From Blastocatellia bacterium (lineage in GTDB: Bacteria > Acidobacteriota > Blastocatellia > RBC074): a stretch of DNA of 64,000 bases. Under the pieces are notes generated by a model that saw only the letters and a list, made by a program, of their open reading frames with translations, had not been told where the DNA came from and did no database searches. The translations under genes were made by a program, and so were the position numbers. The DNA is taken from contig JAYTCQ010000174.1 in NCBI GenBank assembly GCA_043736395.1, forward strand, positions 4,886 to 68,885, in the 5' to 3' direction. Below are positions 13,490 through 45,868 of the stretch, piece by piece; positions within the stretch are counted from its first letter, which is position 1; each line of letters starts with the position of its first letter.

Positions 13490-14956
13490 ATGCTAACTGA
13501 TAATCTACCTGAAGCACTAACTTTTGATGACGTTTTATTACTGCCGGCTTATTCCGATTTATTACCGACGGAAACCGAAACCGTCACGCGTGTAACCCGC
13601 AATATCAGTCTCAACATTCCGCTACTCAGTTCGGCAATGGATACGGTCACGGAAAGCCCAATGGCCATTGCAATTGCTCAACAAGGCGGCATCGGAGTCA
13701 TTCATAAAAACTTTTCGATTGACGCGCAACGCGACGAAGTTGACAAGGTCAAACGATCAGAATCCGGCATGATTGTTGATCCCGTCACTATCACTCCCGA
13801 ACGTCCGCTACGTGATGCTTTGGCATTAATGCAACGCTACAAAATCTCCGGCGTACCAGTCATCGTTGACGGTGGCAAGCTGGTCGGAATTTTGACGAAT
13901 CGGGATTTGCGCTTTGAAAATCGCCTAGACTTGCCGATTTCAGCAGTGATGACGAAAGACAATCTCATTACTGTTTCAGTTGGTACAACACTTCGTGAAG
14001 CTGAAGGAATTCTCCAAAAACATCGCGTCGAAAAGCTGCTCGTGGTAGATGAAAATTATCACTTGAAAGGTCTCATCACCGTCAAGGACATTCAGAAAGC
14101 CATTCGCTACCCAAGTGCTGCCAAAGACGAAATCGGTCGTCTGCGCTGCGCCGCCGCGATTGGCGCGACCGGGGATTTTCTTGAACGCGCTACCGAACTC
14201 ATCAACGCACGTGTAGACGTTCTGGCAATTGATACCGCTCACGGTCATTCCATTCGCGTCATCGAGGCCATCAAGGCAGTCAAGAAAAAATTCCCTGAAG
14301 TCCAACTCATCGCTGGCAACGTCGCCACCGGAGCAGGCGCGAAAGCCCTTGTTGACGCGGGTGTGGACGCCGTCAAAGTCGGAATGGGGCCTGGCAGTAT
14401 TTGTACCACTCGCGTAGTTTCCGGGGCTGGCGTCCCGCAAATCACAGCCGTCGCCGAATGCGCTAAAGCTATCGCAGGCTCAGGAGTTCCGATCATTGCT
14501 GATGGAGGAATAAAATTTTCTGGCGACTTAACGAAAGCCATTGCTGCTGGAGCTGATTCCGTCATGATCGGATCATTACTTGCGGGAACCGATGAATCTC
14601 CGGGTGAAATCATTTTGTATCAGGGACGCAATTTCAAATCCTATCGCGGGATGGGTTCAATCGGAGCGATGAAAGAAGGCAGCAAAGACCGCTACGGTCA
14701 GGAAGGTACGGAACTCGAAAGCAAACTGGTTCCTGAAGGAATTGAAGGTCGCGTCACGCACAAAGGTTCGCTGGCGGCATTGGTCGGGCAATTGGTTGGA
14801 GGCTTAAAAGCTGGAATGGGGTACACCGGGTGCCGAACCATTGAAGAGCTGAAGACTAACGCGCAGTTCATAAAAATTACAGCGGCCAGCTTGAAAGAAT
14901 CCCACGTCCACGATGTTTTTATTACGAAAGAAGCGCCAAATTATCGGGCTGAATAA
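13490..14956 (+). CDS. guaB: inosine-5'-monophosphate dehydrogenase
   Basis: Canonical N-terminus ([14 protein letters not shown]), tandem CBS domains, catalytic loop [13 protein letters not shown] with the Cys, [11 protein letters not shown] and the C-terminal mobile flap. 488 aa. Confidence 0.95.
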
Positions 14957-15734
14957 TTGAGAAGTATCGTAATTTTTCTGGCTTCCCTTCGACTGCCAAA
15001 GCTCCGATAAATTTCGGCTTTGGGTTCAGATGATAAAGCGTCCATCGTTGATTTTCTTCGGGAAAATGATGGACACCTAATAATTTCGCCTCTTCGGAAT
15101 TTAAAGAAACATCAAATTCATCCAAAGGAAATATCAGCCCGTCACCACGCGCTTTAAGATATGCTTCTTTGCAAGTCCAGCAATTGAAAAATGCAATTTG
15201 TTTGAATTCCGGCGCGACAGATTGTAACGCCAGCCGCTCCCGTTGCGAGAAGAAATTCTCTGCTACATTGTCATAAGAATTTTCAAATCGAAGGGCTTCA
15301 AGGTCAATGCCCAAGGCCTTCTCCCAGGCCAGTGCGCAAATCGCGACTCCTTCCGAATGCGATAAATTAAATTGTAACGAATGAGGATTTCCTTCCTCAT
15401 TCTGTAGCCACGGCTTGCCATATTCGCCGTATCCAAACCGGAGCAGGTCTGGAGAAATCTGCAAATATTTTCCAATGATTTTTCTTAGCCAGCTTCGCGC
15501 ATTGATGTAATTCTGACGGTCTTTTTCAAAACGAAAACGTTGCGATTTCTCGATTTCATCCGGTGCTAAAATTTGCAGATTCTGATTATTTTCCGCTGCC
15601 TGAAGCAAAGCAAAATCTTCGCACCACACGTGCACTTCGCCGTGAGCTAACTCAAAATTTTCCGGCGCAGCAGCCCAGATAATATTAGACGATTTATTAA
15701 GCTCAGGCTTCATCATTCCTCGTTCAGCAATCAT
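14922..15734 (-). CDS. Sfp-type 4'-phosphopantetheinyl transferase
   Basis: PPTase motifs: [15 protein letters not shown] (G.D motif region), GIDLEALR, and [18 protein letters not shown] (W/F..KEA.LK). Its start ATG overlaps the NRPS stop (ATGA at 15731-15734), and its 3' end overlaps guaB convergently. Confidence 0.8.
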
Positions 15735-44373: not shown

Positions 44374-44407
44374 ATTTGTTGAATGTCGGACGATTTTTCT
44401 AAATCAC

Positions 44408-45868
44408 CTACGCTTTGATTTCCAATTTCACTTCTCGTGGCGCAGGTAACCTAGCTAATACTGCCAACCCCAAACGGCGGTGCAAGCCTTCTTCACTACA
44501 AACACGGGGATGAAAAGTTTCCGCAATTAATACGCTGCCAAGCGAGGTCCCCAGGCCTGCCAACAAAAGTAAAATCAAATTCTGTGACCAGTTAGGACTA
44601 ACCGGGTAACGCGCAATACTGGCGCCTTCCATTAAAATGACCTGCGTCAATTTTGACTTCTTAACAATGGCTTCAATTTCCGCTTCCTGCGCTTTCTGAC
44701 GGTATAAATCTACAGCTTCCTGATTGAGGAGACGCTCACGTTCAAGGCTCTCTTTTTTGACCCCTGCCTGGTTTAGGTTATTCACACGCGACTGATAGGT
44801 ATTCACCAGCTCACGAAGTCTCGCTTCACGCTCAACCAAAACTGCCAGCGAAGTCTCAGCTTTGAAGAGATCATCCGCGAGACGACGACGCGTCTGATTA
44901 ATCGCAAAAGAACGCTCACGCGGAGGGTTCTGTTCTTCCTTGGCAATCAACTCTTTGGATTTGGCAATGCGCTGATCCATGTCGCGAATCAACCGATGCT
45001 GGGGCTGATATTTTTGCAGCAACTGTGTGCGTTGCATTTCAAACGCCACCAGTTCTTCTTTCATTTTGTCCAATGCCTGCACGTATTTCGTTGAGGAGCC
45101 AACTTCCAGTTGTTCCGGTTCAGAAGCCAGTTGAGATTTCAGCGCATTGATTTGCTTCTGTGCCTCGCGCCTTTCGATGTCTGCCGCTTCCGCTTGTTTT
45201 TGAAGTTCGTAATATTGCTTTAAGACAAGCTCTTTTTGAGAAGCGTTCCCGTTTAATTCAGGTGTTGCCTCAACGCGCTTTAATGCGGTCGTTGCCGCAT
45301 CTAATTTCTGATTAAAAACTTCTGCTCGCTCACTCAACGCGGCTTTCGCATTCACTGGATTTATCGGCTGGCTCAGGCGTTCACGCTCCTTCAGATATTC
45401 AGCAAAAAACAGTTGCAAAACGCGTGCTGCTCGTTCAGGATTTTCATCGCGATAAGTAACTCTGATCACATTCGAACGATTGATTTCTTCCACCAAAAAT
45501 CGTGACGCAAATTGTTGCAGCGAATGCTCATCATTGCTCCCCTTCTGCTGTGCCACAGTCATCAGTAATTCCTGATTTTTCAGAAGTTCAATTTCGGAAG
45601 CGATTTGATTGGTTGCGGTTGCTTTGGAACCGTTCCCAGCAGAAATAGTTTCTGGACTGACCAGAATTTTTATCGAAGATTCGTATAAAGACACCATTTG
45701 GAACATCACCCCAATACCGCTCAGAACAATCAAACTAAATAGTGCAAGTGCCAGCTTTTTGCGCATCCAGATCACAGCACAAAATTCACGCCAAAGCGCT
45801 GACATTGAATTTAGATTGATAGAATTACTAAGCGACATAAGAGCCTTATAAATGAATTCACCGGGCAA
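44408..45868 (-). CDS. second PCP/GumC-like polysaccharide co-polymerase paralogue
   Basis: N-terminal TM (LALALFSLIVLSGIGVMF), an extensive coiled-coil periplasmic region and a C-terminal TM (LILLLLAGLGTSLGSVLIAETF). Same architecture as 41798..43312. The true start may be the internal MSALWREF Met. Confidence 0.65.
   Translation of the reverse strand: MPGEFIYKALMSLSNSINLNSMSALWREFCAVIWMRKKLALALFSLIVLSGIGVMFQMVSLYESSIKILVSPETISAGNGSKATATNQIASEIELLKNQELLMTVAQQKGSNDEHSLQQFASRFLVEEINRSNVIRVTYRDENPERAARVLQLFFAEYLKERERLSQPINPVNAKAALSERAEVFNQKLDAATTALKRVEATPELNGNASQKELVLKQYYELQKQAEAADIERREAQKQINALKSQLASEPEQLEVGSSTKYVQALDKMKEELVAFEMQRTQLLQKYQPQHRLIRDMDQRIAKSKELIAKEEQNPPRERSFAINQTRRRLADDLFKAETSLAVLVEREARLRELVNTYQSRVNNLNQAGVKKESLERERLLNQEAVDLYRQKAQEAEIEAIVKKSKLTQVILMEGASIARYPVSPNWSQNLILLLLAGLGTSLGSVLIAETFHPRVCSEEGLHRRLGLAVLARLPAPREVKLEIKA

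Follow-up and report, generated by a model that had tools for sequence, protein, structure and literature searches.

The window analysed here, a stretch of 64,000 nucleotides from a Blastocatellia bacterium, a soil or stream acidobacterium (assembly GCA_043736395.1, contig JAYTCQ010000174.1, positions 4,886 to 68,885), contains a dense run of minus-strand genes, from position 45868 down to 14922, in which the genes of a Wzx/Wzy-type polysaccharide pathway are mixed with those of three non-ribosomal peptide synthetases (NRPS1 to NRPS3) and a 4'-phosphopantetheinyl transferase (PPTase). We propose that the run is one conserved unit and that its product is a surface polysaccharide or exopolysaccharide (EPS) of the Wzx/Wzy type, the repeat of which bears a short acyl-peptide and/or an aminoacyl group made by the NRPS; we regard this as slightly better than an even bet, at a probability of about 0.55. 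Functional coupling of the NRPS and polysaccharide genes is well supported by the comparison of related genomes, and covalent joining of peptide and glycan, as read from the sequence, is plausible.

In order of transcription, the 16 consecutive and adjoining open reading frames (ORFs) of the run encode a Wzz protein, a weak homologue of tyrosine autokinases, a Wzz+GNVR protein, the priming transferase, a GSDH-PKD-Big_7-PA14 protein, a Wzy_C protein, a GT4 glycosyltransferase (GT4a), the Wzx flippase and a second GT4 (GT4b); these are followed by NRPS1, NRPS2, a PAP2 phosphatase, an NHL/SGL protein, a LamG-metallophosphoesterase, NRPS3 and the PPTase. Searches with Pfam and NCBIfam profiles, applied to ORFs of at least 100 amino acids (aa), confirmed all domain calls of the original prediction, namely those of the EPS genes, of the three NRPS with the Sfp-type PPTase, and of the secreted and membrane proteins. 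The tightly packed run with three 4-bp overlaps described there is likewise present in the ORF layout: the overlaps lie at 15731-15734 (ATGA, between the NRPS3 and PPTase genes), at 23911-23914, and at 43309-43312, where the Wzz+GNVR gene 41798-43312 meets its operon-upstream neighbour 43309-44373. The remaining intergenic gaps measure 3-131 bp, and two apparent overlaps of 53 and 71 bp are an artefact of the earliest-TTG start choice of the ORF lister. A consensus scan detected no minus-strand terminator-like hairpin inside any intergenic gap of the run. GC content is even across the block (0.45-0.51), and because of the lack of a GC step a horizontally inserted island was rejected.

Relatives of the locus were collected by scanning an alignment of the LamG-metallophosphoesterase against one genome per GTDB species, which yielded 79 loci, and subsequently by tblastn with all window proteins. 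All 12 species-level Blastocatellia/Acidobacteriota metagenome-assembled genomes (MAGs) with a LamG orthologue of at least 59% identity carry NRPS genes together with Wzx and GT4 genes, and the loci at 56% identity or below (Chloroflexota, Eisenbacteria, Bacteroidota and others) carry no other genes of the cluster. Moreover, polysaccharide genes accompany the orthologous NRPS block in 15 of 15 related Blastocatellia loci; an occurrence of this block without EPS genes, the check that the original prediction had proposed, was never found among the relatives. At protein identities of 47-91%, glycan and NRPS genes are mixed in this way in over 20 independent loci, which makes the association more than chance. 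The central idea of the original prediction, that the NRPS and Wzx/Wzy genes act as one functional unit, is thus strongly supported by comparative genomics, the block being always inside a polysaccharide locus.

The closest relatives, with 76-91% protein identity, are the Blastocatellia MAGs GL88_UP_metabat_53 and GL73_DN_metabat_76, and the order usual among the relatives is GT4-GT4-[A-T-TE]-[C-A-T-TE]-PAP2-NHL-LamG-Wzx-NRPS3-PPTase, where A, T, C and TE stand for adenylation, thiolation, condensation and thioesterase domains. In most relatives the Wzx gene therefore lies between the LamG gene and NRPS3, amid the NRPS genes. It is missing from this place in the window, where it lies between the two GT4 genes, and in locus L008, whose contig ends too early upstream to place it. 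The order varies in further ways: in L013 the Wza orthologue directly follows NRPS3; the A-T-TE gene is absent from L072 and L090, and the LamG gene from L090; NRPS3 of distant relatives ends with an extra C-T; and in GCA_009612815.1 (L089) the A-T-TE and C-A-T-TE proteins are fused into one protein of 2319 aa. About 23 A-T-TE orthologues of NRPS1 were detected (58-100% identity), the few named ones being labelled Acidobacteria or Blastocatellia, and the mixed cluster was seen again in all four genomic contexts inspected. With regard to the flippase, the window Wzx is only 65-69% identical to that of every relative, including the closest genome (L007, 12043-13335), whereas the other proteins reach 76-91%, and its gene position differs from that in the relatives; the lineage of the window seems to have exchanged its flippase gene or moved it. 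A full cluster of the Blastocatellia type (59-70% identity) was also observed on CAZWAK010000047.1 (L016/L006), labelled 'uncultured Heliobacteriaceae bacterium', a bin label that is probably wrong.

Beyond these close relatives, the listed homologues of the Wzy protein form two groups, the window clade (at least 57% identity) and a large Pyrinomonadaceae/Blastocatellia group (47-54%). The outgroup was surveyed in sampled genomic contexts and by a scan of metagenome contigs, and its loci (Wzy at 47-52% identity in those examined) keep the core Wzz-X-Wza-PGT-Wzx-Wzy-GT4-GT4 (PGT, priming transferase), with Wza inside the core. Among the 24 loci with at least 6 kb of sequence downstream of Wzy, contiguous same-strand NRPS genes were detected in eight (six of the outgroup, two of the window clade), and in five further entries NRPS genes lie farther off or on the opposite strand; this set is partly redundant, as L134 nearly duplicates L133, and L091, one of the 13 NRPS-positive entries, is on the contig of L089. 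GT4b, 60-91% identical across all related loci, is always immediately upstream of the NRPS or PPTase part. The NRPS set itself differs: in the L088 type, which also retains the PAP2-NHL pair, PAP2-NHL is followed by A-T-C-T, C-A-T and further domains, and in the L087 type TauD is followed by A-MT-T-A-T (MT, methyltransferase), C-A-T-C-A-T and further domains. The domain that opens every variant is homologous to the first A domain of NRPS3, and its pocket, SSRD[I/M]SMGI, is invariant. From these sequences, the glycan core is constant and the starter unit fixed, and the peptide part would be an accessory diversifying module, like the variable region of a serotype locus.

In five of the 11 loci of this set that lack adjacent NRPS genes, the gene immediately downstream of GT4b encodes an Sfp-type PPTase, and after it come a GH5 gene and unrelated genes. 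The same GT4b-PPTase-GH5 arrangement was observed in many loci of the Pyrinomonadaceae type, namely L098 (13970-16208), L143 (5465-7632), L100, L106, L112, L125, L145-L148, L151, L159, L163, L164 and L168. In those with 6 kb or more of downstream sequence (L098, L125, L143, L151 and L168), no NRPS or other AMP-binding gene was detected in the 7-10 kb available; the PPTase of the NRPS-less loci is a carrier-protein activator without a visible client.

The NRPS proteins of the window were then characterized by their domains and binding pockets. The C and A domains of NRPS1-3 gave Pfam E-values of 2e-117 to 4.6e-169. Motif searches detected A10 (PxxxxGK) in all four A domains, GGHSL in the four T domains, HHIxSDG in both C domains, and GRSFG together with Asp and His in both TE domains; the A3 motif TSGSTGxPKG was matched by regular expression in three of the four A domains, the exception being the second A domain of NRPS3. 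Judged by these motifs, all four domain types have an intact catalytic core. The TE domains of NRPS1 and NRPS2 are paralogues with 53% identity, and the true start of NRPS1 is probably at 31579, eight codons after the listed one. A-domain pockets were read by alignment to GrsA-PheA numbering, with a reconstructed reference fragment that is consistent with the published code DAWTIAAICK; the codes of NRPS1-3 are kept in the orthologues. The pocket of NRPS2 (DAFFIGGTF) is presumably Val/Ile-like, and that of the second A domain of NRPS3 (DVGEVVSID) is close to DVGEIGSIDK, which we take to be an ornithine code. In the first A domain of NRPS3, Ser takes the place of Asp235 (FSSSRR aligned by HMMER to FDGSAL of LgrA), a replacement that is invariant in 12 related loci and indicates that the starter is not a normal alpha-amino acid; this domain would hence activate a non-alpha-amino acid. 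Its pocket is polar (S, S, R, D, S) and not lipophilic, which excluded a fatty-acid (FAAL-type) starter.

A database search with the starter A domain recovered many proteins with pockets of the type S/A-S/L-R-D, mostly cyanobacterial and Chloroflexi proteins with the architecture A-T-TE (approximately 900 aa) or A-T. Two of their genomic contexts, both independent of Blastocatellia, were sampled, and each is a polysaccharide locus. In Nostoc sp. 'Peltigera membranacea cyanobiont' 210A (L170), the order is GT4-Wzc-Wzx-GT2-GT1-Wzy-GT4, an insertion sequence (IS) fragment, and A-T-TE with the pocket SSRDISMGI. In a Chloroflexi MAG (L171), genes for an epimerase, a sugar-nucleotide dehydrogenase, a sugar isomerase and a DRL oxidoreductase precede the A-T-TE gene (pocket ALRDISIGV), and genes for a nucleotidyltransferase, a PIG-L deacetylase, GT4, PMT_2, GT4, PGT and Wzc follow it. 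In each of them the A-T-TE protein stands alone and cannot make a peptide, which suggests that this A-domain type serves in the acylation of glycans. When the starter A domain and the Nostoc A-T-TE protein served as queries against a plasmid database, only canonical Asp235 A domains of ordinary NRPS or siderophore clusters were retrieved. A related architecture was noted in P0112, a protein of 1485 aa on a 2.7-Mb contig, in which a GT2 domain (residues 14-218) is joined to the C-terminal half of a C domain and a full A-T-TE. As a tentative extension, for which we would not claim even odds, the polar, Asp235-less A-domain family may be dedicated to glycans in at least three phyla, with the Blastocatellia form placing an NRPS-built cationic acyl-peptide, different in each lineage, on a Wzy-polymerised trisaccharide repeat. 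On this same tentative footing, the lone A-T-TE protein might acylate a lipid-linked glycan with a polar acid (hydroxy-, keto- or sugar-derived), and the A domain might have become the starter of multi-module lines in Blastocatellia.

Turning to the polysaccharide genes (Table 1), the original prediction had described complete Wzx/Wzy machinery with a BY-kinase-like protein. The priming transferase, the GT4s, Wzx, Wzz and Wza were indeed detected; the kinase partner is degenerate, and its earlier designation was given up, as the protein has neither a Walker A motif ([AG]xxxxGK[ST]) nor a C-terminal Tyr cluster, with no Tyr in the last 30 residues, and scores far under the cut-off of the model. 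It is a pseudokinase at best. Genes for proteins of 228-323 aa without a Pfam match hold the same position in L087, L088 and L089, the one in L089 being 46% identical, and this suggests that the pseudokinase is conserved as a partner of the co-polymerases. The Wzy protein has 430 homologues; PF04932 is found in nearly all of the 120 listed and is carried by the orthologues of the window protein, which itself falls below the gathering score. Since the Wzy_C family includes ligases as well as polymerases, the polymerase role is a prediction at the level of the family. The Wza homologue is divergently placed and, with 236 aa, consists of Poly_export and SLBB only. It does not include the region that forms the outer-membrane helix barrel in Wza of E. 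coli. So short a protein would depend on another component in the outer membrane, for which no candidate was identified within the window.

An orthologue of the TPR/sigma-54 activator that lies directly upstream of the run is found in the same position in L089 and L090 (53-58% identity). The window, L089 (480-1340) and L090 (3224-3670) also share a promoter layout, in which one to three palindromes lie 115-135 nt upstream of TGGCAC-N5-T(T/C)G(A/C), and the latter is 190-525 nt from the start codon; in the equivalent intergenic region the palindrome is present in two perfect copies in L090 and in two to three degenerate ones in L089. The -12 element reads TTGA, not TTGC, in two of the three loci. 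Across the window the sigma-54 consensus is not enriched (87 matches compared to 71±7.5 expected), and the informative part of the sigma-54 evidence is only the positional conservation in the three loci. The shared layout and the conserved adjacent activator suggest sigma-54-dependent control of the whole run. No Rfam family was matched in the whole window, including the 737-nt leader, in which a riboswitch was sought, and a scan of the window for tRNA genes detected none.

Table 1. Genes and candidate regulatory elements of the locus, in window coordinates. TM, transmembrane.
Feature	Position	Strand	Evidence
Wzz-like polysaccharide co-polymerase, first gene	44408-45868	-	Pfam Wzz 1.9e-4; TIGR03007 8.5e-30, under its cut-off; N- and C-terminal TM segments
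Degenerate BY-kinase-like protein	43309-44373	-	TIGR01007 1.3e-9, 37.9 bits against a cut-off of 108
Polysaccharide co-polymerase Wzz+GNVR	41798-43312	-	Wzz 7.5e-11, 42.6 bits (cut-off 25.5); GNVR 3.3e-5; two TM segments (N- and C-terminal)
Priming polyprenyl-phosphate hexose-1-phosphate transferase	40238-41671	-	Bac_transf PF02397 5.6e-67; CoA_binding_3; TIGR03025 409 bits, above cut-off 295.55
Secreted GSDH beta-propeller + PKD + Big_7 + PA14	36993-40106	-	Pfam; signal peptide
Wzy-type polymerase (predicted), Wzy_C / O-antigen ligase family	35457-36974	-	PF04932 29.9 bits, below the gathering score of 31.7; about 12 TM segments
GT4a glycosyltransferase	34214-35527	-	Glycos_transf_1 3.9e-40
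Wzx flippase, MOP/PST family	32860-34158	-	Polysacc_synt_3 PF13440 1.7e-12, 47.6 bits (cut-off 23); Polysacc_synt PF01943 7.6e-9, 35.8 bits (cut-off 28.2); 10 TM segments
GT4b glycosyltransferase	31621-32829	-	Glycos_transf_1 2e-26
NRPS1, A-T-TE single module	28871-31603	-	Pfam; motifs TSGSTGNPKG, LGGHSL, GRSFG; pocket DLYFFSLVE
NRPS2, C-A-T-TE	24731-28855	-	Pfam; HHIVSDG, LGGHSL, GRSFG; pocket DAFFIGGTF
PAP2 membrane phosphatase, undecaprenyl-diphosphate phosphatase-like	23911-24783	-	PAP2 2.3e-14; weak matches to YbjG and PgpB models; TM segments
NHL/SGL beta-propeller	23006-23914	-	SGL 9.3e-9; NHL 1e-8; N-terminal signal ending ...LMNSC
Secreted LamG + metallophosphoesterase	21014-23002	-	Laminin_G_3 2.3e-18; Metallophos 4.6e-4, 21.1 bits, just below the gathering score
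NRPS3, A-T-C-A-T	15731-20908	-	Pfam; first A pocket SSRDISMGI, second A pocket DVGEVVSID
Sfp/HetI-type 4'-phosphopantetheinyl transferase, last gene	14922-15734	-	ACPS PF01648 5.1e-17; AASDHPPT_N PF22624; HetI model 5.9e-58, below the equivalog cut-off
Candidate sigma-54 -24/-12 element TGGCACgcagaTTGA	46357-46371	-	Consensus match; 488 nt before the first Wzz start codon
Palindrome TGGCAAtaaagTTGCCA, candidate activator site	46470-46486	.	TGGCAA-N5-TTGCCA; second, weaker copy at 46539-46555
TPR + sigma-54 enhancer-binding protein (AAA+, HTH_8), directly upstream of the operon	46606-49560	-	Sigma54_activat 6e-64; TPR_12; HTH_8
Short Wza-type outer-membrane export protein	51770-52480	+	Poly_export PF02563 2.6e-21, 76 bits; SLBB

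Among the accessory proteins of the run, the GSDH-PKD-PA14 protein is conserved in the window clade, L003 and L005 having it in duplicate, and the NHL/SGL protein, given its signal, is a probable lipoprotein. The metal-binding motifs of the metallophosphoesterase (D328, GD367-368, GN(H)D408-411, H499 and GH531-532) are invariant in five orthologues, and a PDB sequence search with the LamG-phosphoesterase retrieved no relative. Its more distant homologues (36-56% identity, L018-L085) are widespread in Chloroflexota, Eisenbacteria, Krumholzibacteriia, Bacteroidota and Actinomycetota and are without NRPS or EPS neighbours; many of these matches span 2.6-2.9 kb as compared to 2.0 kb here. The locus is flanked by housekeeping genes for IMP dehydrogenase (13490-14956) and valyl-tRNA synthetase (52486-55242), and beyond the activator gene lie a divergent S8 protease gene and the short Wza gene. 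Elsewhere in the window, the plus-strand genes at 57488-63518, which encode two proteins of approximately 365 aa without a Pfam match, an 823-aa protein with a HerA/DUF87-type ATPase N-terminus and an SPFH/Band 7 protein, are reminiscent of a defence or membrane-associated ATPase module, and a 952-aa protein with six FG-GAP_2 repeats, DUF11 and DUF7927, encoded outside the cluster at 65-2923 of the plus strand, is probably a large surface protein.

Following from the gene content, we propose that the adjacent TPR/sigma-54 activator would switch on the candidate sigma-54 promoter approximately 490 nt upstream of the first gene. The priming transferase would load hexose-1-phosphate on undecaprenyl phosphate, and the two GT4s would extend it to a trisaccharide, the sugars being putative. 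On the cytoplasmic side, PPTase-activated NRPS3 may load a polar non-alpha-amino acid starter and condense it with an Orn-like residue, NRPS2 may add a Val/Ile-like residue to the product of NRPS3, and NRPS1 may activate one small residue; with respect to this predicted module order, the fusion in L089 is equally compatible with NRPS1 feeding NRPS2. In the weakest step of the scheme, the two paralogous TEs would use a hydroxyl or amine of the lipid-linked oligosaccharide, and not water, as the acceptor of the acyl groups. As no aminotransferase or deacetylase is encoded in the cluster, attachment to a neutral hexose through an ester is more likely than through an amide. Wzx would then flip the decorated unit, Wzy with the two co-polymerases and the pseudokinase would polymerise it, and Wza would export the polymer, while PAP2 may recycle undecaprenyl diphosphate and the secreted NHL, LamG-phosphoesterase and GSDH-PA14 proteins may process or bind the polymer outside the cytoplasm. 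By analogy to D-alanylation, an Orn-like residue would render the polymer cationic or zwitterionic.

Several observations weigh against this proposal. No joining acyltransferase of the MBOAT, DltD or AlmG type is present among the 17 cluster proteins, so that the joining step rests on the TE domains, and the sequences of these are not discriminating: their identity to the TEs of polysaccharide-locus or cyanobacterial A-T-TE proteins and to those of ordinary NRPS is alike 32-42% (mostly 35-42%), which does not single them out as glycan acyltransferases. The cluster also contains no sugar aminotransferase, deacetylase or dehydrogenase that would give an obvious attachment point. The glycan core was found without adjacent NRPS genes in 11 of the 24 loci that extend 6 kb or more beyond Wzy, which implies that the glycan is independent of the peptide, and variable NRPS content would also be expected of an ordinary secondary-metabolite island. 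Furthermore, the substrate calls for NRPS2 and for the second A domain of NRPS3 draw on resemblance to specificity codes, the cross-phylum link of the starter A type draws on two sampled contexts, and all genomes behind the comparison are MAGs. Alternatively, one co-regulated locus might make two products, namely the polysaccharide and, non-covalently beside it in the biofilm matrix, a free (acyl)peptide released by TE hydrolysis, for instance a surfactant, signal, metal binder or antibiotic. The TEs have the ordinary Ser/Asp/His triad and are indistinguishable from ordinary NRPS TEs, no joining enzyme was identified in the cluster, the 11 related loci hold the glycan core without NRPS genes next to it, and NRPS architecture differs by lineage as in typical secondary-metabolite clusters. 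We nevertheless consider a free peptide unlikely: no peptide exporter, receptor or resistance gene was detected in the loci inspected, and in the cluster itself no ABC, MFS, RND or TonB-type gene for a free peptide is present, its only transport components being Wzx and Wza. Moreover, in most loci Wzx and PAP2-NHL stand amid the NRPS genes, and the sets are reshuffled but never separated; the starter A type occurs as lone A-T-TE in polysaccharide loci of two other phyla, and the PPTase is kept at the end of the glycan core.

The degeneration of the kinase partner, which in classic systems is needed for high-level polymerisation, and the presence of only two glycosyltransferases and one priming enzyme might instead be taken to indicate a small glyco(lipo)peptide, like glycopeptidolipids or hassallidins, made either by the GT4s or by the Wzy_C protein acting as a WaaL/PglL-type ligase onto an exported peptide; the family of the latter does hold ligases and O-oligosaccharyltransferases, and the window protein lies below the Pfam cut-off. 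However, two Wzz proteins and an outer-membrane polysaccharide export (OPX)/Wza protein are hallmarks of polymer assembly and export and are conserved in all variants, a priming undecaprenyl-phosphate transferase is unnecessary for glycosylating a soluble peptide, and the peptide would have no route to the periplasm, which renders this product decidedly improbable. Finally, the adjacency might be neutral, with the site downstream of GT4b being an insertion hot spot for unrelated biosynthetic islands. The content after GT4b does vary by lineage (NRPS variants, PPTase with GH5, or nothing), and a transposase fragment lies beside the A-T-TE gene in Nostoc; yet the starter A pocket is invariant in every NRPS variant, which argues for descent with modification and not for independent insertions, glycan and NRPS genes remain interleaved at identities of 47-91%, and there is no GC discontinuity across the block. 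We give neutral adjacency hardly any weight.

A polysaccharide with an NRPS-made decoration, as preferred here, would have wider implications. Acidobacteria, above all Blastocatellia and Pyrinomonadaceae, are abundant in soils, deserts and glacier-fed streams, and to our knowledge their matrix polymers have hardly been characterised. Provided that the peptide is attached to the glycan, the locus would represent the first multi-module NRPS acting on a Wzx/Wzy lipid-linked intermediate, and it would extend the principle of the Dlt and Alm systems to true peptide decoration, allowing a programmable variation of surface-polymer charge and antigenicity. Should the tentative extension to other phyla also hold, the constant glycan backbone would bear a hypervariable peptide coat, comparable to serotypes, and this would be a new class of hybrid biopolymer. 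The invariant A code SSRD[I/M]SMGI and the two paralogous TEs, as candidate glycan acyltransferases, offer handles, and the series of loci with one glycan core plus different peptide modules or none is a natural comparative experiment. Genome-mining tools that separate 'saccharide' from 'NRPS' regions would mis-split such loci. The original prediction knew of no characterised system with exactly this organisation, and in the literature searched, the coverage of which was incomplete, we likewise found no published precedent: neither NRPS genes placed within a Wzx/Wzy locus nor the starter A-domain type are described there.

The individual parts can be compared with known systems. With its priming transferase, GT4s, Wzx, Wzy_C, Wzz and Wza/OPX, the locus is like the Wzx/Wzy capsule and EPS pathways of E. 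coli (group 1 capsule, colanic acid) and Myxococcus xanthus (EPS, BPS, MASC). In contrast to classic loci of this type, it has three NRPS genes and a PPTase gene within the operon, a degenerate BY-kinase homologue, and no genes for sugar-nucleotide modification. The short OPX protein and the kinase-less partner resemble the non-enterobacterial variants of M. xanthus (bioRxiv 10.1101/2022.02.11.480155). The locus is also like XrtA/PEP-CTERM EPS loci in its chain-length determinants, OPX protein, sigma-54 activator and AMP-forming ligase/carrier functions (TIGR03098 and neighbours), whereas the ligases here belong to genuine multi-domain NRPS modules equipped with C and TE domains, in place of an acyl-CoA ligase and acyl carrier protein. 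The XrtA/PEP-CTERM and equivalog-level models TIGR03098, TIGR03007, TIGR03027, TIGR03088 and TIGR02915 all scored below their cut-offs, with only the generic TIGR03025 being met, and no exosortase domain was detected in the scanned window ORFs; a PEP-CTERM/exosortase system was ruled out on these grounds.

The closest CHARACTERISED enzyme to NRPS1 is P0116, an A-T-TE protein with 46% identity over 95% of the length, which from its neighbours (DHQS-like, O-methyltransferase and ATP-grasp genes) we take to be MysE/Ava_3855 of shinorine biosynthesis in Anabaena variabilis. MysE, a single-module NRPS specific for serine and dependent on a PPTase, is described as joining serine to mycosporine-glycine (PMC12232313). 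This shows that A-T-TE enzymes of the MysE/NRPS1 lineage can attach one residue to a non-peptide scaffold, which in that case is sugar-derived. The function of MysE itself was excluded for NRPS1 by pocket and genomic context: the pocket is DLYFFSLVE as compared to DVWHISLID, with two Phe narrowing it and an acidic residue where the Asp of MysE contacts the serine hydroxyl, and the neighbours are GT4 and C-A-T-TE genes and not mysABC (DDGS/DHQS-like, O-methyltransferase, ATP-grasp).

In the DltABCD system (D-alanylation of teichoic acids) and the AlmEFG system (glycine on lipid A of Vibrio cholerae), an amino acid is adenylated and loaded on a phosphopantetheinyl carrier, and the thioester serves to decorate a lipid-linked or cell-surface glycoconjugate, often adding positive charge. 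Those systems add single residues by means of a separate A protein, a small carrier and a membrane acyltransferase dedicated to the task, whereas the present locus has C domains, integrated TEs and A and T domains within multi-domain proteins, and by Pfam no acyltransferase of the MBOAT, DltD or AlmG type. In mycobacterial glycopeptidolipid loci, NRPS and glycosyltransferases yield a surface glycoconjugate with a short acyl-peptide, a small glycolipid exported by MmpL; the present locus has no MmpL/RND gene and possesses PGT, Wzx, Wzy_C, Wzz and Wza, which the glycopeptidolipid loci lack. Taken all together, and for a kind of product not yet characterised, the locus is a hybrid of known kinds, combining a Wzx/Wzy pathway with an NRPS line.

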